Origin: an uncultured delta proteobacterium
GTDB taxonomy: Bacteria > Desulfobacterota > BSN033 > UBA1163
DNA: 64,000 nucleotides
Assembly: GCA_963708295.1 (NCBI GenBank)
Contig: CAVPSJ010000012.1
Location: 160,001 to 224,000, forward strand
Reading direction: 5' to 3'
The notes beneath the pieces are model-generated. The model searched no databases. It had not been told where the DNA came from and saw only the letters and a list, made by a program, of their open reading frames with translations. Numbering within the stretch: the first letter of the stretch is position 1; every line of letters starts with the position of its first letter. Shown here piece after piece: positions 33,699-61,085 of this stretch. A program made the position numbers and the translations under genes.

Positions 33699-36510
33699 TC
33701 ACCCCTGGATCGCCTCGATGCACCTGTGGCAGATGGTTCCATGCTCCTGATGAGTCCCGACGGTGACTTCATAGTTCCAGCATCTCTCACACTTCTTCCC
33801 CTCTGCCGGAGATACTTCCACCCGCACCTCTTTTTCATCTTTGGCGAGATGAAGGATGACGGAGGAAACAATAAAGACGAACTTCAGGTCCTTCTCGTAA
33901 CATTCAAGAAAAGGATAGATCTTCTCGGGAACATAGAGATGAACCTGCGCATCCAAGGACAGTCCGATGATCTTCTCTTTACGTGCTTCTTCCAGGACTT
34001 TGGTCACCAGGGTTCGGATCTCCCACAGCCTCTCCCAGCGTTCGTTCAGGGCGTCGTCCAGATACTCGCTTTTCACTTCAGGGAACAGCGCCAGATGAAC
34101 ACTTTCTGACTTTCCGCGCTCTTCCGGAAGGAGTTGCCAGACCTCCTCTGACGTGAAAGAGAGAATAGGAGCCATGAGGCACGTCAACGCTTTTAAAATC
34201 TCGTAGAGCGCGGTCTGAGCCGACTTCCGGGCTTGAGAACCGGACGAAGAGGTATAAAGCCGGTCCTTCAAAATATCAAAATAAAGGGCGCTCATCTCCG
34301 CCGCGCAGAAATTCTGAACGGCGTGGTAGACCGTGTGGAATTCGAAACGCTCATAAGCCTCTCGGACCCTGCCCGTGAGCTTCTGGAGCTGGTGGAGCGC
34401 CCATCGGTCCAACTCATGGAGTTCGCCATAGGGAACCCGGTCTTTTTCGGGATGGAAGTCGTACAGATTTCCTAAAAGAAACCGAAAGGTGTTTCGGATT
34501 CGGAAGTAGCTGTCGGCTAAACGTTTCAGGATCTCGTTGGAGATCTTGATGTCATCTCTGTAATCCTCTGCCGCGACCCAGAGCCTCAATACATCGGCCC
34601 CCAATCGATCGATGATTTCGTCGGGAGCAACCACATTTCCCGCCGACTTGGACATCTTCTTGCCCTCTCCATCCACGACAAATCCGTGGGTCAGGACGGT
34701 ACGATAAGGGGCACACCCTCTTGTCCCGACGGAAGTCAAAAGGGAACTGTGGAACCATCCCCGGTGCTGATCGCTTCCTTCCAGGTAGAGACTCGCCGGA
34801 AACTCAAGCTCGCTCCGTTTCTCCAGGACGGCTGCATAGGAGACCCCCGAGTCAAACCAGACATCCAGAATATCCGTCTCCTTCGTAAATTCCTTTCCGC
34901 CGCACTGAGGGCAGCGGGTCCCCTTGGGCAGCAGGTGATCCGTCCCTTCTTCAAACCAGATGTCCGCTCCCTTCTCCTCAAAAAGACGGGCGACATGTTC
35001 GATGGTTTCCTGGTTGACCAGAGGTTGTTTGCAGCCCGCACAGTAAAAGACGGTGATCGGAATCCCCCAGGCCCTCTGTCTGGAGACGCACCAATCCGGC
35101 CGGTTTTCAACCATCCCGTAGATTCGATCCTTTCCCCAGGGAGGGATCCAGCTCACTTCATTGATGGCCTTCAAGGCATCCCGTCTCAACCCCATTCTTT
35201 TCCATCGAGATGAACCATTGCTCCGTCGCCCGAAAGATGATCGGGTCGTTGGTACGCCAGCAATGCGGATAAGAGTGGACCATCATCTCCTCTTTGAGGA
35301 GCGCTCCCACCTCCGCCAGCTTTTTGTTGACGGCACCGTTGGCGTCAAAAACAAACTGCCCGGCGAAGAAAGGAACATCCTGGGTAAACCGGCCATCATC
35401 ATCGACCGGACTGTAGATCTCCAAGCCATATTGCACCCCGCTTTCATAATCCTCTTGACCGTGGCCGGGCGCCGTGTGCACACACCCCGTCCCCGCATCC
35501 AAGGTCACATAGGGGGCGAGGATGATCAGCGAATCCCGGTCGAGGAAGGGATGCCGGGCTTTGAGTCCTTCCAGTTTTTTTCCTGCAAATTTCTCCACCA
35601 CTTCATATTTCTTGATTCCGAATTTCCTCATGTCCTCTTCTAAAAGGCCCTCTGCCAGGATATAGATCTCTCCGCCCACATCCACGGCTACGTAAGTAAA
35701 ATCGGGATGCAGCGCAATCGCCAGGTTGGCCGGGATCGTCCAGGGCGTGGTCGTCCAGATGATGACGTAAACAGGCTTTCCCCCGAGGCTTGGGAACAAA
35801 TCCCCGATGTCCCCCCCACCCTTTCCCTCCCCCTCAAGGGGGGAGGGGCGGGAGGGGGTGGAGATCATTTTGAATTTCACATAGATGGAGGGGGAACGAT
35901 GGTCCTCGTATTTTACCTCCGCCTCGGCCAATGCGGTCTTGCAGGTAGGGCACCAGTGGACCGGCTTCTTTCCCTTGTAAACGGAGCCGTTTAGAAGAAA
36001 CTTTCCGAACTCTCTGACGATCGTCGCCTGGTATTCAAAATTCATGGTCAAATAGGGATTTTCCCATTCGCCAAAGATTCCCAGGCGTTTAAACTCCTCC
36101 CTCTGAATCCCCACAAATCTGGCCGCGTACTCCCGGCACCGCTTCCGAATGTCAACGACGGACAGTTCTTTTTTCTTCGAACCGAGACTCTTTTCCACCT
36201 CGTGTTCAACAGGCAAGCCATGACAGTCCCATCCTGGAACATAATGGCTATCCAACCCTGCCATAGACTTCGATTTCAAGATGAAGTCTTTCAGGATTTT
36301 ATTCAAGGCCGTGCCGATGTGAATGTTTCCGTTGGCGTAGGGAGGACCGTCGTGAAGGATATATTTCGGCCTTCCTTTCACCTGCTGGCTCAATCGGGGG
36401 TAAGTCCCCTTCGCCTCCCATGCTTTCAGCATATCCGGCTCCCTCTTAGCCAAATTGGCCTTCATGGGAAAGTCGGTCTTCGGAAGATTCAATGTCTTAC
36501 GGTAATCCAT
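33699..36510 (-). CDS. ileS: Isoleucyl-tRNA synthetase (apparent frameshift near 35190)
   Basis: [54 protein letters not shown]. Confidence 0.96.
35812..35859. repeat. 48-bp palindromic repeat inserted in frame in ileS
   Basis: Encodes [16 protein letters not shown]; DNA matches the intergenic repeat family at 33536-33652. Confidence 0.7.
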
Positions 36511-46964: not shown

Positions 46965-48723
<1,759 letters not shown>

Positions 48724-50904: not shown

Positions 50905-51420
50905 TTATTTAGGCAGGAATTGAAGCATAACCGGCTGGGTCAGGAAAACGATGAAGAGGATGGTCGCAAGCAGTGCCACGACCGCATACGTTTCAACGAA
51001 TGCCGGGAAAAGGACCGCCTTACCGGCAGCCTCCGGTCTGCGGGCCAGGAGCGAAATACCCGCAGCAGAGGCCTCTCCCTGATAGATCGCAGAGATAAAC
51101 TGGGCAAGACCATCTCCAAGCCCGATAAAGAAGAGCGCAATGCCTGTGCCGAGGGATATCTTCAGCGGGCCGCCGCCGATGAGCCCTGTCTGGGTCATCA
51201 TGAGAATCGCTGCGATAAATCCGTAGAACCCCTGTGTGCCGGGGAGCGCAATCATCACCAGCATTCGGCCGAAGAGTTCCGGCTTCTCCCGCATCACGCC
51301 GGCAGCCTGGTGAGCGGCGATGGCAATACCCCAGGCAGAGCCGGAACCGGCCAAACCAAAGGCCAGGCCCGCACCAGCAAAGCAAAGACCGCGTCCTATC
51401 TCGATCGATTCAGGTATCAT
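50905..51420 (-). CDS. V/A-type ATPase subunit K (c), Na+-binding signature
   Basis: 4-TM proteolipid with LPGTQGFYG, SAIYQG, VETYA. Confidence 0.93.
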   Translation of the reverse strand: MIPESIEIGRGLCFAGAGLAFGLAGSGSAWGIAIAAHQAAGVMREKPELFGRMLVMIALPGTQGFYGFIAAILMMTQTGLIGGGPLKISLGTGIALFFIGLGDGLAQFISAIYQGEASAAGISLLARRPEAAGKAVLFPAFVETYAVVALLATILFIVFLTQPVMLQFLPK

Positions 51421-54101: not shown

Positions 54102-54753
54102 CTATTTAATTTTCTGGATGTCTTTTTCTTTTCCAATCACGACTAAGACATCGCTGTCCTTGATCGTAAAGTCCGCACGGGGAACCATGGTCAATCGTTC
54201 CGGCAGCATCTCCCTCACGGCAATGACCTCAATATGGTATTTGCTTCTCAGGTGGAGCTCTCCGATCGTCTTTCCCATAAAACTTGGGGGAGGCGCTATC
54301 TCACAAATGGTGTAATCATCCGAAAGAGGAATATAATCAAGGACATTGGGGGAGATCAGGCTTCTGGCCACTTTGTCTGCCATCTCCCTCTCAGGAATGA
54401 TCACCTCTGTCGCTCCCACCTTTTCCAAGACATGCTTGTGGTCTTCATTGGGCGCCTTCACAATGATATGTCTTCACTTTCATCTCTTTAAGATGGAGGG
54501 TAATGAGCGTACTGGCAGCCAGGTCCTCGCCAAAAGAAATGATGACCACATCGTCCGGCTGGATGCCGATCGATTCGATCACCTCTTTGTCTGTGCCGTC
54601 GGCAAGAATGGCCTTCGTGGAGAAATCTCTGATTTTCTGAATGACCTCTTTATTCTTGTCAATGGCAATCACTTCAAACCCATTTTCGTAAAGATCTTTT
54701 GCGATATTAAATCCGAAGATCCCCAACCCGATCACCACCACTCGTTTCATCAA
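54102..54753 (-). CDS. TrkA/KtrA potassium uptake RCK subunit (frameshift near 54460)
   Basis: VIGLGIFG, IAIDKN, EKVGATEVIIPEREMA, DVLVVIG. Confidence 0.92.
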
Positions 54754-56506: not shown

Positions 56507-56537
56507 AAAAAAGGCAGGAACATCCTTCCTCCTGCCT
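56507..56537 (-). terminator. Intrinsic terminator ending the microprotein cluster
   Basis: Minus strand AGGCAGGA-loop-TCCTGCCT followed by a T run. Confidence 0.7.
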
Positions 56538-56650
56538 CGTTCTTCAACAGCGGATTGTTGGTTTCTCTTATTGAAAACTGCCAACTTCTTGGAATTGCCG
56601 GATACAGCTTCGCCCCTGCGTCGAAAGGGGAACGGGGTCGACATTGGGTC

Positions 56651-56755
56651 TTAGGGTCTCAAAAAAAATACAAACCCTATCACCAATGCGACCGCTATCG
56701 CAATGACTACCACCCAGACCCAAATTGAAGCACCAGCTTCTTTCTTTTCTTCCAT
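56651..56755 (-). CDS. 34-aa single-pass membrane microprotein
   Basis: AAGGAGGTGA RBS; MEEKKEAGASIWVWVVVIAIAVALVIGFVFFLRP*. Confidence 0.7.
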   Translation of the reverse strand: MEEKKEAGASIWVWVVVIAIAVALVIGFVFFLRP

Positions 56756-56859
56756 CTCCGTCACCTCCTTCAAAAAATGAGGATCGTGCCATGTCAGGAG
56801 TAGGCTGACCTTCCATTCTTACAACGGATGAACGATCTGGGGCACCTCAAGACCATCGA

Positions 56860-57111
56860 TTAATAATTCTCCAGGTTTCTTAATAAGGTTTTCAGCTTAT
56901 CGGGGATAGAGTTCTCCTTGGGGTTAGTCTCTCCAATCTCCCCTTCAGTAATTTGAACCGGCATGATTAATTTATTATCCTTTGTAAGAAATTGAACCTT
57001 ATAGTTTCTATATTTGTAATCAATCACTTTACACTTAATACATCCATTTAAATGCATGATTGCCCAATCCAATATTTCTTGAGCCTCTCTTATCTTTTCA
57101 CCCTCGTCCAT
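56860..57111 (-). CDS. Hypothetical soluble protein (83 aa)
   Basis: GAGGAGG RBS; no recognised motif. Confidence 0.65.
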   Translation of the reverse strand: MDEGEKIREAQEILDWAIMHLNGCIKCKVIDYKYRNYKVQFLTKDNKLIMPVQITEGEIGETNPKENSIPDKLKTLLRNLENY

Positions 57112-57375
57112 ATTAACGCCTCCTCTTTTGCAACTCCATTGTCCTCCCTGCCTATAACTCCATATGAATCTTTTTTTCTTTCCTTTCAGTTATAAAACCG
57201 AAGATAGCGGATCAAGGTGGCTATGCCCAAGGTTATGACCGAAACAATCGCCCCGGGCTAGTATTGGTTCATGAATGACATAGGCGGTCGTAAGTAATTG
57301 GCAAAACCGAAGATTGTTCAGGAGTCATTACAAAGGAATCGACCCTACTCATCTTGTTTCATACTGTTCTCTCTA

Positions 57376-57567
57376 TTAAGATTGACTCTGAGTTGACGGG
57401 CCCTTATCCATTGTTTTTCCGAAGTGTGCCAATGCCCAAATCATCCCCACACCCGACATAATCACAAGCGCAAATATAATGGTGGGGTGCACGGGCAGGT
57501 GCCTAATCACCGTCCATGCTACGAAATTGCCAATGATCGGCCCAGCCACAGCTAACACTTGTTTCAT
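57376..57567 (-). CDS. 63-aa two-TM membrane microprotein
   Basis: AAGGAGG RBS; paralogous to 58411-58719. Confidence 0.75.
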   Translation of the reverse strand: MKQVLAVAGPIIGNFVAWTVIRHLPVHPTIIFALVIMSGVGMIWALAHFGKTMDKGPSTQSQS

Positions 57568-57789
57568 CTTTCCCTCCTTCCATAAGTTGACTCACAAAGT
57601 CTTGGTTCTTAAAAAAACAAGATTCCATTGCCATAGATGAAACACCCTTCCAGCGGTGTCGTGATCACTCCGATAGATGCAGGCACCCCTATCCAGAGTG
57701 CGTCACCTTCTGGTAAAGCATAAAGGTAAGGAATAGAGAATTTCCGCTCCAGATAATTGCATCAAGGGTTTTCTTGCCTTTTTCAGATC

Positions 57790-57873
57790 CTACAACTTCT
57801 TCACCGCACGCCCCATGAAGAAAATAACCCCTATCATGATGAGTGCTGCCACTATAATCCCTAGCGTAAACAT
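57790..57873 (-). CDS. 27-aa single-pass membrane microprotein
   Basis: GGGAGG RBS; MFTLGIIVAALIMIGVIFFMGRAVKKL*. Confidence 0.65.
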   Translation of the reverse strand: MFTLGIIVAALIMIGVIFFMGRAVKKL

Positions 57874-57952
57874 AAGACCTCCCTGTTTCGTGCACTAGAT
57901 TTCATGGTGTCAAAAATATGCCACACCCTATATCCTTTTCGCATTCACTCGT

Positions 57953-58387
57953 TTACTTCACGGAGAACACCTTCGAAGTCCCGCGGTATTTAGATCTCAA
58001 CTGGGAAAAAACCCGTACCTTACAATGTTTCGAATCCACCTTAGGAACATTCCAAATATACTTCCCAGAATTGGGCACATTTTCCCCAACGTTCTGCCAC
58101 GACTTCCCCCCATCTTTTGAGAACTCAACGGTCACCATCGCCCCAAATTCGGATTCCGCCGGTTCCGATTTCCAGAGGACCTCATACGAATCTTCTGCTT
58201 TGACGACATCATTTGCCTTTGGACTCAGAATCATGACCCCTTTATCTGGCTTAGCGGTTAGAATGCTGACCACGAAAATGATTGCAACGATAGCAATCAA
58301 GACCAGCATGAATCCCCCCATCGTCAAAAAAGTATAGAATTTGCTCCAAAATCCCCGCTTCATTTCTTTCGGCTCCGCTGCTGCCAT
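57953..58387 (-). CDS. Membrane-anchored protein with a periplasmic Ig-like domain
   Basis: AAGGAGG RBS; TM then ILSPK..YEVLW..VEFSKDGGKSW..NSGKYIWNVP..S..F. Confidence 0.75.
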   Translation of the reverse strand: MAAAEPKEMKRGFWSKFYTFLTMGGFMLVLIAIVAIIFVVSILTAKPDKGVMILSPKANDVVKAEDSYEVLWKSEPAESEFGAMVTVEFSKDGGKSWQNVGENVPNSGKYIWNVPKVDSKHCKVRVFSQLRSKYRGTSKVFSVK

Positions 58388-58410
58388 TATTTCCTCCTTC
58401 CTGGATGAGT

Positions 58411-58719
58411 TTAATTGGCTCTTGTTAAGTATCCTTCAAAAAGAATGAATTCAGGATTCTGGTCAAAGGCTTCCTGTCCTGTTACAGCGATACTCCCTCT
58501 GTTGAGCTTCTGTCTAGTAAAGGATTTTGGCAAAATTGGCTCTAAGTTTGACGGGTTCTTATTCGTTCTTGCAAAATGTGACAATGCCCAAATCATTAAC
58601 AATCCTCATGTGATTACCAGCGCAAAGATGATGAGAGAGTGCACAGGCAACAGAGTGATCAACGCCCATGCAACAAAATTGCCTACGACTGGCACAGCGA
58701 CACTTAAGAATTGTCTCAT
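58411..58719 (-). pseudogene. Paralog of the 63-aa membrane microprotein with in-frame TGA at codon 38
   Basis: MRQFLSVAVPVVGNFVAWALITLLPVHSLIIFALVIT*GLLMIWALSHF aligns throughout with 57376-57567. Confidence 0.7.
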
Positions 58720-58777: not shown

Positions 58778-58877
58778 CTCCAATAAAAAAGCCGCTACCC
58801 GAAGTTCTATCTTCGGATAGCGGCCCGACTATCCAGTGCTTTAACCTCCAGAAATAACAAAACGTATTTCTGGACCC
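58778..58877 (-). ncRNA. Riboswitch-like leader, copy 2, with intrinsic terminator (resembles Na+/Li+ DUF1646/nhaA-I class)
   Basis: GGGUCCAGAAAUA-loop-UAUUUCUGGAGGUUAAAGCACUGGAUAGUCGGGCCGC then terminator GCCGCUAUCCGAAG/CUUCGGGUAGCGGC-UUUUUU. Confidence 0.65.
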
Positions 58878-58945: not shown

Positions 58946-59044
58946 CTCCAATAAAAAAGCCGCTACCCGAAGTTTTATCTTCGGATAGCGGCCCGACTAT
59001 CCAGCCTCTTAACCTCCAGAAATATTTGATATACTTCTGGACCC
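58946..59044 (-). ncRNA. Riboswitch-like leader, copy 1, with intrinsic terminator
   Basis: Near-identical to 58778-58877; differences are confined to loops/linker and one A-U to G-U change. Confidence 0.65.
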
Positions 59045-59238
59045 AAAAAGAACCCTACGTTCGATATGATGGATACGATGTAGTTATCAAACTATTCCAT
59101 GAATGTCAAGGATTTTTTCTTACCCGATCGCCTCGATCGAAGAAATGATCCTCCAAAGAAAGGCTTGTCTTTTTCTGAGAAAATTATATGATGATTTCTA
59201 TCAACAAACCTCGTCGAGGGAATAAAAAATCAATCGGT

Positions 59239-61085
59239 ATGATTCGATCGCTTCGCAAAAAAATCTTCATTGGATACGGCATCGCCCTGGCTTTGATGGT
59301 TGTGGTCTTTGTTTGGGCCCTGGTCCATCTGCTCGACCTCGGTGAAGCGAGCGATGCTATTTTGAGAGAAAACTATAAAAGCATTCTTGCCGCTGAAAAT
59401 ATGGTCTATGCCATCGAGCGACAGGACAGTGCAACCCTGCTTCTCTTTCTAGGGTACGAGGAGCAAGGCAGGAGACAGTTCCGCGAGAATGAGAGCCTCT
59501 TTTTCCAATGGTTGGCCCGGGCAAAGGATAATATTACCGTCGAAGGGGAGGAAAGAATTGTCAGCACCATTGAAAAAGAATACTCGACCTATCTGCAGCA
59601 TATCTCCGGACTTCCACCTGTCTCCAAGTCCAATCTGCAGAAAAGTGCAGCCTTTTATCACGAAACCATACTCCCCTCGTTTATTTCTGTCCGGGATGCA
59701 TGTATTCGTCTCCGTGAGATCAACCAGGAAACGATGTTTAAGGCCAGCGAACGGGCTCGCCACGTCGCAAAGAGAGCGATCTGGTCGATGGTCATTATCG
59801 GCAGCGCGGCCGTGGGGATCGGACTGGGATTCAGCCTTCTGCTTTCAAATCTTCTCGTCAAACCGGTTCGGCGCATGATGGAAGCGACGCAAAAGATTTC
59901 CGAGGGAAATTATGACGTGGAAATTTCAGTCGCATCCTCTGACGAATTGGGCGATTTGACATCCGACTTTAATCAAGATGGCCAAAAAGTTGAAAGCCTA
60001 TCACGACCTGAATATCGATCAAATCTTGGCAGAGAAACGAAAGAGCGATGCGATTATTCGAAGTATCGATGACGGAATTGTCGTTGTCGACAAGGAACTC
60101 AAGGTGACCGGGATCAATCCAACAGCGGCAAGAGCACTTAGCATTGAACCGGATCAGGTACAGAACAAGCATTTTCTTGAGGTGGTCAAGAATGAAATGT
60201 TGTTCAATTATGTGAAGCAGTCCGTTGAAACGGGCCAGCCTCCTTCCATCGAAGAGAGGAAGACGATTTTCACGATCGAAGAGGGAGAGAAACAACGGCA
60301 CTACCAATTTTCGATTACACCGGTGCATGGGAAGCCCGGGTCTTTGTTGGGGGTTGTCTTGCTTTTGCGTGATGTGACCCGCCTGACGGAATTGGACCGT
60401 CTCAAAAGCGAATTTGTCATGATGGCTTCGCATGAATTGCGAACCCCTTTAACGAGCATCGGCATGAGCATCAAGCTCCTTCTCGAAAAAACCATGGAGA
60501 AACTCGACGGGAAAGAGCAGCAGCTTCTTTTGGCCGCTCATGAGGACCTGCAAAGGCTTAAAAACCTTGTGAACAACTTATTGGATCTTTCGAAAATTGA
60601 AGCAGGAAAGATGGCGATGGAGTTTGAAAACATTTCTGTTGATAGCCTCTGCCAGAACGCAATGGGTGTTTTAAAGAACCAAATCGATGCAAAAGGAGTC
60701 AACGTGACTTTGGATTTACACCCCCATCTCCCCAACGTCAAAGCAGATGCCAATAAGATCATCTGGGTGTTGACCAACCTGATCTCCAACGCCCTGCGTT
60801 ACACTGACAGCGGAGGACAGATTCGCCTTTCTGCCGAGCGGATCGGCCCCTACATTCATGTCTCAGTCAGTCGACAACGGGCCAGGGATTCCGTTTGAAG
60901 TTCAATCCAAGATCTTTGACAAATTTGTTCAGATCAAAAGCGACAAGGCCCTTGGAGGAAGTGGTCTCGGATTAACCATCTGCAAAGAGATTATTCGTGC
61001 TCATGGCGGTACGATATGGGTAGATTCAACCCCGGGAGAAGGAAGTACCTTTACCTTCACGCTCCCGATCGTAGAAAAATCCTAA
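59239..61085 (+). CDS. Sensor histidine kinase (periplasmic four-helix sensor, HAMP, PAS, HisKA, HATPase), frameshifted twice
   Basis: ILRENYKSI, SSDELG, SIDDGIVVVD, ASHELRTPLTSI, NLISNALRYT, DNGPGIP, GSGLGL. Confidence 0.88.

Follow-up and report, generated by a model that had tools for sequence, protein, structure and literature searches.

In this study, we analysed a 64,000-nucleotide (nt) stretch of DNA from an uncultured delta proteobacterium (GenBank assembly GCA_963708295.1, contig CAVPSJ010000012.1, positions 160,001 to 224,000 of the forward strand; hereafter the window) and, within it, a cluster of six small open reading frames (ORF1 to ORF6) that follows two riboswitches of the nhaA-I class. 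Coordinates are positions within the window, and the cluster and both switches lie on the minus strand. Where labels are needed, G denotes a genome (G000 being the window's own), C a contig (the window lies on C12) and L a locus. The six ORFs are co-oriented and span 58719-56651, between the two complete riboswitches and an intrinsic terminator. An initial annotation, made from the sequence alone, had described six co-oriented small ORFs between tandem RNA elements and a terminator; all were found where it had placed them, with the terminator at 56538-56511. Read along the minus strand, the locus contains the following features (aa, amino acids).

58983..59044, minus strand: nhaA-I aptamer 1 (full-length RF03057 match, model positions 1-55 of 55; 50.2 bits, gathering score 37)
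58957..58994, minus strand: intrinsic terminator of switch 1 (16-bp stem and T run; its left arm includes the P2 loop and 3' arm of the aptamer)
58815..58877, minus strand: nhaA-I aptamer 2 (full-length RF03057 match, model positions 1-55 of 55; 53.3 bits, gathering score 37)
58789..58826, minus strand: intrinsic terminator of switch 2 (16-bp stem and T run)
58606..58719, minus strand: ORF1, a broken ORF4 paralogue (37 codons and then TGA on translation; 62% aa and 73% nt identity to ORF4)
58414..58584, minus strand: in-frame tail of ORF1, ending in what is left of the C-terminal half of p101, a 101-aa gene intact in relatives
57953..58387, minus strand: ORF2, 144 aa, an N-terminal membrane anchor fused to an immunoglobulin (Ig)/fibronectin type III (FnIII)-like domain (424 database relatives)
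57790..57873, minus strand: ORF3, a 27-aa peptide of one helix whose C-terminal FMGRAV(K/R)KL is invariant (15 homologous loci)
57376..57567, minus strand: ORF4, 63 aa, two membrane helices (13 database clusters, 59-92% identity)
57189..57257, minus strand: C-terminal 23 codons left of a CitMHS/NhaD-like transporter gene (87% identity by tblastn to residues 434-456 of the G044 protein)
56860..57111, minus strand: ORF5, an 83-aa soluble alpha/beta protein (156 database clusters; AlphaFold2 (AF2) predicted local distance difference test (pLDDT) 92)
56651..56755, minus strand: ORF6, a 34-aa single-helix peptide ending FL(R/K)P (alignment of 12 sequences)
56511..56538, minus strand: intrinsic terminator at the operon end (10-bp stem and T run; region 75% conserved in the syntenic G044 locus)

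GGAGG-type Shine-Dalgarno sites were found 4-8 nt ahead of the ATG in each of ORF2 to ORF6, and the site of ORF1 is GGAAGGGGGA, which bears out the purine-rich site that had been noted for every ORF. ORF6 is 34 aa long when counted from its ATG; a TTG at 56773 overlaps the Shine-Dalgarno site. Every other GGAGG word of the minus strand belongs to one of the aptamers, follows terminator 1, precedes an 8-codon mini-ORF upstream of ORF5, or forms part of the final terminator. This mini-ORF (57113-57139, minus strand) has its own GGGAGG site and ends within the ribosome-binding site of ORF5; it may be due to chance or may be a coupling device. Hydropathy gave one membrane segment each for ORF2, ORF3 and ORF6, two for ORF4 and none for ORF5. 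It agrees with the earlier description of a membrane-anchored Ig-like protein, a 27-aa membrane peptide, a 63-aa two-helix paralogue of the first gene, a soluble 83-aa protein and a 34-aa membrane peptide. A terminator scan of the cluster interior returned no other strong terminator, the sole extra match being a weak 7-bp stem in ORF2.

Both window RNAs match the RF03057 covariance model end to end and above its gathering score, and switch copies 1 and 2 are 94% identical over 79 nt. The centroid fold of switch 1 consists of P1 plus the terminator. Since the P2 loop and 3' arm are contained in the left arm of each 16-bp terminator, aptamer and terminator are mutually exclusive, and the overlap of P2 with the terminator reads as an ON-switch design. 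According to the parts of White et al. (2022, PMC9646797) drawn on here, nhaA-I RNAs respond to Li+, and rare terminator-bearing variants, described only from Deltaproteobacteria and upstream of unknown genes, respond to Na+ and are named Na+-II. The class was shown experimentally to turn genes on with Li+, or with Na+ in the case of the deltaproteobacterial terminator variants (PMC9646797). Most nhaA-I RNAs carry U at position 54, and C54U in the validated Desulfobulbus propionicus RNA widened its response to Li+, Na+ and NH4+ (PMC9646797).

The equivalent of position 54 was mapped by our own inference from the published construct sequences (supplement 1 of PMC9646797): directly 5' of the CGGGCC loop, the Desulfobulbus RNA has C and the three listed Li+-I constructs have U. 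Both window aptamers have U immediately 5' of CGGGCC and so differ from Na+-II RNAs, which have C at this inferred position. In P1 and the junction they are nearly identical to the Desulfobulbus RNA. They also share with Na+-II operons the aptamer fold, the terminator laid over P2 as a platform mutually exclusive with the aptamer, the lineage (records of close relatives are Thermodesulfobacteriota or delta proteobacterium metagenome-assembled genomes), and downstream "hypothetical" genes, here ORFs without a family above cut-off. Apart from the U, owing to which the selectivity may include Li+, the window differs from those operons in that its cargo proteins are newly described here and its two switches stand in tandem. 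The parts consulted of a 2022 review of tandem riboswitches (PMC9481103) list six Li+-I doublets and place Na+-II among the classes without a tandem arrangement. Terminator-type tandem doublets were seen in at least five loci of the genome family examined here (own C12 and C13, G044:C14, G003:C7 and G020:C68). With Li+-I riboswitches, the window RNAs share the RF03057 match above the gathering score and the U before the CGGGCC loop. However, most Li+-I members are thought to control translation of nhaA (as given in the sections of PMC9646797 consulted), whereas the window pair controls a terminator and has no nhaA; the lower P1 stem is GGGUG in Li+-I and GGGUC in the window. These comparisons suggest that the window switches are terminator-type nhaA-I RNAs of the Na+-II kind, with Na+ and/or Li+ as the probable ligand, rather than proven Na+-II riboswitches.

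Across the family, the base before CGGGCC is U in 35 and C in 10 of the 45 parsed aptamers, which come from L023-L067 and the own contigs C5, C8, C12 and C13, and it is U before all small-protein modules. The C-type aptamers precede a LivK-like ABC system (7), a winged-helix gene (2) and a 746-aa protein (1), and U-type aptamers precede the GpgS operon too. This sorting of U and C with cargo may mark two ligand specificities within one genome family.

Whether ORF2 to ORF6 are genes was examined by searches in relatives and by the ratio of nonsynonymous to synonymous substitution rates (dN/dS), calculated pairwise by the Nei-Gojobori method with our own script. When the DNA of 40 relatives was searched (41 genomes, counting that of the window), the ORF2 domain, ORF3, ORF5 and ORF6 turned up at 70-89% identity and in varied combinations; tblastn gave 61-81% aa identity. 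The dN/dS values were 0.085-0.16 for the ORF2 domain (10 pairs), 0.12-0.41 for ORF5 (12 of 15 pairs, three being saturated), 0.15-0.58 for ORF6 (13 of 15 pairs) and 0.25-0.56 for ORF3 (3 pairs). ORF3 made the weakest case, and a metagenome scan with it added 12 further loci; of the 15 homologous loci, 13 sequences were counted, 10 of them distinct as DNA. In these, the variable columns fall 8/5/18 by codon position, the mean pN/pS (the corresponding ratio of proportions of differences) is 0.22, and the C-terminal FMGRAV(K/R)KL is preserved through synonymous changes. The 13 database clusters of ORF4 are mostly 63 aa long, its paralogues occur in 5 of the 55 family genomes, and pN is below pS in the pairs that include ORF4. 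ORF6 was found at E <= 1e-6 in 6 of 55 family genomes, and one ORF5 database entry is 100% identical (83 aa). The order ORF2-ORF3-ORF4 recurs at about 96% identity in an independent metagenome contig. Chance ORFs are ruled out for ORF2 to ORF6 by homologues elsewhere with dN/dS well below 1, and the conservation and dN/dS checks that had been proposed with the initial annotation thus came out in favour of these genes. These results indicate that ORF2 to ORF6 are real, conserved genes under purifying selection.

None of the six ORFs has a Pfam or NCBIfam family at cut-off. Named database relatives of ORF2 and ORF5 are called "hypothetical protein", as are most homologues of ORF2 and ORF4 in the protein collection. 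The literature consulted on nhaA-I/lithium riboswitches, on Na+-II riboswitches and, by abstract, on riboswitch-linked small membrane proteins in salt stress contains no description of these proteins.

The AF2 model of ORF5 (pLDDT 92) consists of a helix, three strands, a short helix and a helix. A comparison of this fold with the PDB gave no convincing relative (Foldseek best E 0.058; VIA-align over 48,161 chains, best Z 5.0), and the ESM Atlas returned just "hypothetical protein" clusters, below 0.9. Among 1.84 billion representatives searched by profile, 51 small relatives came up, together with a 1,828-aa match that looks spurious; of the 19 small relatives that were scanned, none has a Pfam family at cut-off. 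ORF5 is thus predicted to be a small cytoplasmic alpha/beta protein without a known fold relative. The AF2 model of ORF2 is of moderate confidence (pLDDT 65) and shows one long membrane helix and a beta-sandwich, for which the best Foldseek rows are FnIII/Ig domains at E about 1e-2. ORF2 scores 21.8 bits (E 3e-4) against PF10342, the Kre9/KNH-like Ig domain, below the 24.6-bit cut-off, and several of its close homologues carry a precomputed PF10342 match; a PDB sequence search gave marginal rows only (E >= 0.025). Judging from the charges that precede the anchor helix, the domain would face outward.

The first ~45 residues of ORF2 are homologous to a free-standing peptide of ~54 aa that heads other switch operons, including the tandem one on the window genome's own C13. 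The rest matches the mature part of 124-aa relatives whose signal peptide ends in Cys. Two forms accordingly appear in the ORF2 alignment, one anchored and one with a signal peptide and Cys. The sequence in the 124-aa relatives is ...SC(A/S), whereas ORF2, like about 10 of the 25 aligned sequences, has an uncleaved-looking anchor that lacks the lipobox Cys. The fused form recurs in other metagenomes at 72-94% identity. ORF2 is therefore itself a fusion, of an anchor peptide and an Ig/FnIII-like domain.

We investigated what nhaA-I switches control in the family. There were 54 matches in 27 of the 55 genomes, six of them in the window's own genome. The 45 downstream regions and four own-genome loci gave 49 loci, in which ORFs of at least 22 aa were clustered. 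The recurrent cargo was as follows.

LivK-like binding protein and ABC ATPase: 13 loci
ORF2-type proteins: 10 loci
ORF5: 8 loci
108-aa winged-helix protein (small regulator): 6 loci
ORF6: 6 loci
GpgS-like glucosyl-3-phosphoglycerate synthase and HAD phosphatase: 4 loci (NCBIfam E 2e-109, below the equivalog cut-off)
ORF3: 3 loci
p101: 3 loci
68-aa protein (p68) followed by a 456-aa CitMHS-family transporter: 3 loci

The window's small genes stood in changing orders behind these switches. In relatives we found switch-ORF2-ORF5, switch-ORF6-ORF3, switch-ORF5-ORF6-ORF3, switch-switch-p101-ORF2-ORF5 and switch-peptide-p68-CitMHS-ORF5-ORF6; ORF5 and ORF6 each also stood alone behind a switch, and ORF5 ended the GpgS operon. 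In species-representative genomes, 8 of 8 ORF5 relatives belonged to switch-headed units, seven lying less than 4 kb from the switch and one 6.2 kb down the same strand. A switch was found within 3 kb upstream of 5 of 8 close ORF2 relatives and upstream of ORF3 in 7 of the 12 metagenome loci, the other five being cut by the contig end inside the operon. Taken over the loci that could be examined, most homologues of the small genes thus follow such a switch. In four relatives (L036, L049, L064 and L066), the nhaA-I switch is followed by the GpgS-like synthase, the HAD phosphatase and a 486-aa LapA-domain membrane protein. The GpgS operon likely encodes a pathway for the osmolyte glucosylglycerate that is controlled by a cation riboswitch. 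In the relatives, other families of single-helix peptides, their N-termini rich in E/K, share the operons of the small genes (L105:472-597, L112 about 238-375 and L044:3715-3879), and the window therefore displays only part of the micro-gene pool.

The history of the window operon was examined by comparison with its syntenic counterpart, G044:C19. There, the kinase gene and the switch align to 59344-58947 at 87%. A second block, running from the end of CitMHS through ORF5 and ORF6 to the terminator, matches 57259-56504 at 75-88% (88.5% over 57259-56824). Synteny is limited to these two blocks. Between them, G044 has a 55-aa anchor peptide, p68 and the transporter, and the window has switch 2, ORF1 with the p101 remnant, ORF2, ORF3 and ORF4. 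The full-length CitMHS relative (456-457 aa) scores 219 bits on PF03600, but in the window only 23 C-terminal codons of the transporter are left, at 57257-57189, upstream of ORF5. The tandem leader of the window aligns as a whole with that of G020:C68, which continues there into p101-ORF2-ORF5. These results show that the window operon is a mosaic, its left half resembling the switch-switch-p101-ORF2-ORF5 unit of G020 and its right half the CitMHS-ORF5-ORF6 end of G044, and that it has lost its transporter save for the 23 codons. Between ORF6 and trkH, G044:C19 has a second IT-superfamily transporter (431 aa, L073:5005-6300) that the window lacks; in the metagenome locus L107, ORF3 is followed by a similar gene. 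No close homologue of either the 456-aa CitMHS or the 431-aa transporter was found in the window's own assembly, which is 91% complete.

ORF1 had been described as a two-helix protein interrupted by TGA. The TGA is there, but the description missed that the gene is a broken duplicate fused to the remnant of another. The duplicated segment covers 186 nt of ORF4 including the ribosome-binding site, and the frame past the TGA is open as far as 58411. The TGA occupies the site of a Ser or Val in the paralogues, and no selenocysteine insertion sequence (SECIS)-like or stable hairpin was found in the RNA after it (z 0.16). Selenocysteine insertion and read-through were rejected on these two grounds in favour of a plain stop. 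The tail of ORF1 matches a 101-aa ORF of G020 (tblastn, 41% identity over 64 aa), and this p101 gene is intact in G020 and in one metagenome contig. A related metagenome contig has two single-base gaps within the tail, as expected for non-coding DNA. ORF1 thus appears to be a dead copy of ORF4 that landed in p101 and truncated it.

Other traces of p101 were also seen. A p101-derived stretch lies upstream of ORF3, between ORF6 and ORF3, in five loci (L107, L108, L109, L113 and L114); two contigs have it as an intact 44-aa mini-ORF, one contig has it interrupted by an in-frame TGA, and others carry a frameshift in it. This looks like the independent decay of one gene whose 3' end was kept as the leader of ORF3. 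A 231-aa ORF with two p101-like repeats (...DERPDLIIYEGWF...) was found at G000:C17:14697-15392 on the minus strand, and the nhaA-I model had no match on that contig.

ORF6 had been compared with KdpF on account of its LRP tail. KdpF is a small peptide of the kind also represented by AcrZ and MgtS, which bind transporters. Like KdpF, ORF3 and ORF6 are peptides of about 30 aa with a single helix, encoded in operons for ion homeostasis; the LRP at the end of ORF6 has its counterpart in the ...LLRPEKF of the KdpF of the window's own genome. That KdpF (29 aa, G000:C12:229160-229250, or L118:2162-2248 on the minus strand; 47 bits on PF09604) lies just beyond the window end, where the kdp operon continues, directly upstream of a split kdpA (C12:227554-229288). 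The PF09604 profile matched none of the 12 ORF6-family members at E <= 10, and hhalign gave the ORF6 family a probability of 3.3% against the genome's own KdpF. ORF6 has no family match and does not adjoin kdpA, and the genome has a KdpF of its own. The proposed likeness was therefore dropped.

We consider it likely that two alkali-cation ON-riboswitches, both equipped with a terminator, act as a pseudo-cooperative pair and have the cluster as their cargo. When cytoplasmic Na+/Li+ is low, the leaders would fold into their terminators and transcription would halt at ~58957 or ~58789. When the cation is bound, stem P2 would hold the left arm of the terminator, and read-through would then yield one mRNA of ~2.3 kb ending at the terminator at 56538-56511. 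The tandem-riboswitch review, in the part drawn on here, states that doublets give a sharper dose response (PMC9481103), and two cation-dependent terminators in series would be expected to do so in the window. The products would be an outward-facing, membrane-anchored ORF2, the single-helix ORF3 and ORF6, the two-helix ORF4 and the cytoplasmic ORF5, all at or near the inner membrane. Because the small genes are placed with glucosylglycerate synthesis and NhaD-like carriers in the compared genomes, they very probably belong to a salt-stress regulon. They appear to form a lineage-specific pool of exchangeable small-protein modules within this sodium/osmotic-stress regulon.

Several observations weigh against this picture. 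Co-transcription and cation induction are predictions from the sequence, and the aptamers carry U in place of the Na+-selective C at the position as mapped here, so that the ligand may be Na+, Li+ or both. The dN/dS values come from related, non-independent sequences and from our own script. Three of the eight close ORF2 relatives have no switch within 3 kb, and no switch accompanies the ORF4 paralogues elsewhere, which come after a TRAP-type permease. Not all members of these families are therefore under switch control. The locus itself bears signs of decay, namely the stop in ORF1 and two gene remnants, and the many split genes of the assembly mean that single lesions need careful reading. 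The ORF4 paralogues (G000:C13:166731-166913 on the minus strand and L069-L072) stand in a conserved setting of a TRAP DctM-like permease, a 55-61-aa ORF4-like protein, a 57-69-aa two-helix protein (4 of 5 loci) and a 2-hydroxyacid dehydrogenase.

What the proteins do at the membrane was considered together with the alternatives to switch-controlled modules. A role in assisting ion transporters is a tentative suggestion at best, with ORF5 and the CitMHS carrier as the best candidate pair; a membrane or envelope adaptation independent of transporters is plausible, though short of probable. The closest alternative, which we doubt, is that the small proteins are accessory subunits of an ancestral IT-superfamily (CitMHS/NhaD-like) antiporter that were orphaned here when the transporter was deleted. 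The p68-CitMHS pair occurs in 3 of 3 family-genome loci, with ORF5 next to it in two and DNA like the start of ORF5 in the third, and CitMHS-ORF5 is also found in one metagenome contig. The persistence of the last 23 codons of the transporter directly before ORF5, and the failure to find a close homologue of it or of the 431-aa transporter in the assembly, fit this explanation as well. However, ORF5, ORF6 and ORF6 with ORF3 make up the whole switch cargo, without a transporter, in G049, G006 and G004; ORF5 also ends a glucosylglycerate-type operon, and the small genes are intact and constrained in lineages that lack the transporter. These stand-alone units argue that the modules may work without a dedicated partner.

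It is improbable that the peptides act as KdpF does and modulate their neighbours, be it the Trk K+ system, the V-type ATPase or the Kdp/histidine-kinase sensors. The cluster does sit between trkH-trkA-V-ATPase and the kinase, response regulator and KdpD genes, and G044 has the same kinase gene upstream and trkH downstream. Synteny with trk was nevertheless not borne out, with trkH present in 1 of the 49 switch loci (the window's own) and, further downstream, in G044, where it lies beyond another transporter gene. In most genomes, the peptides already largely stand without Trk or V-ATPase neighbours, and the KdpF comparison, as noted above, failed, true KdpF adjoining kdpA. A reading of the cluster as the residue of a transporter operon, non-functional and in decay, is less probable still. 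The TGA of ORF1, the p101 and CitMHS remnants and the single-base gaps in the ORF1 tail of a related contig would be accounted for in this way, but ORF2 to ORF6 are intact, have strong ribosome-binding sites and show purifying selection across many lineages, and the order ORF2-ORF3-ORF4 is kept in the independent contig. The least probable explanation, and one we regard as highly improbable, is that the hydrophobic peptides damage membranes as type I toxins or bacteriocins do. They are short, hydrophobic and single-helix, and their database matches are just weak, sub-threshold ones to families of small membrane or secreted peptides. They are placed, however, with osmolyte synthesis and transporters behind a cation switch and have no family match at cut-off, and no immunity or export genes were seen in the fetched loci, in which no search for antisense RNA was made.

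The cargo of an alkali-cation switch pair thus remains our preferred reading of the cluster. A further possibility, which we offer only speculatively, is that the Thermodesulfobacteriota of this family keep a pool of eight or more interchangeable micro-gene modules (ORF2-Ig, the 54-aa anchor peptide, ORF3, ORF4, ORF5, ORF6, p68 and p101, plus the E/K-rich peptides). Operons under cation riboswitches would exchange these modules, perhaps through recombination at their near-identical switches, and the modules would act as unrecognised, stand-alone membrane effectors of sodium stress without a dedicated transporter partner. The initial annotation had proposed a possibly undescribed, cation-induced set of peptide modulators of transporters or sensor kinases. 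Its first part stood, given that no family reaches cut-off and the relatives are listed as "hypothetical"; cation induction is a well-supported prediction from the two nhaA-I switches, and the modulation of transporters or kinases would be a tentative proposal. In its favour, three modules flank a CitMHS/NhaD-like transporter in relatives and a remnant of that gene persists in the window; against a dedicated role, the modules are also found as sole switch cargo or at the end of an osmolyte operon.

The switch class and its link to unknown genes are already published, as the consulted parts of PMC9646797 make clear. What is new is the description of these protein families, the recognition of the 27-aa and 34-aa genes as real, the fold-orphan ORF5, the shuffling of modules and the lost transporter. 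Alkali-cation riboswitches are among the few known direct sensors of Na+/Li+. Of the 944 genes tallied behind the nhaA-I motif, 171 were listed just as "hypothetical" (PMC9646797). Part of this list now becomes defined, conserved families, two of them below or near the size limits of gene callers and one, ORF5, with a confident model and no match among solved structures. For researchers on small proteins and ion homeostasis, they provide concrete candidates together with a ready inducer to test. The window also illustrates that such operons are rebuilt from modules and that the main transporter can go while the small genes stay.

The neighbours of the cluster were those given in the initial annotation, with trkAH and V-ATPase genes on one side and KdpD, kinase and response regulator genes on the other. 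Downstream and on the same strand lie TrkH, a split TrkA and V-type ATPase genes; upstream lie a divergent HAMP/PAS histidine kinase, a response regulator and a KdpD-type sensor. A number of long genes are broken up into frames that overlap or adjoin one another, namely isoleucyl-tRNA synthetase (IleRS; 33699-36510), V-ATPase subunit A (46965-48723), TrkA (54102-54753) and the HAMP/PAS histidine kinase (59188-60898). These look like indel errors of assembly, and single frameshifts in this genome should therefore not be taken as pseudogenes without reads. The V-ATPase genes with trkH-trkA directly upstream presumably recall the ntp operon of Enterococcus. The V-ATPase proteolipid (50905-51420, minus strand) is 171 aa long and forms two hairpins, and its helices carry T-Q, Q and E-T residues, which we take to sit where Na+-translocating V-type rings bind Na+.

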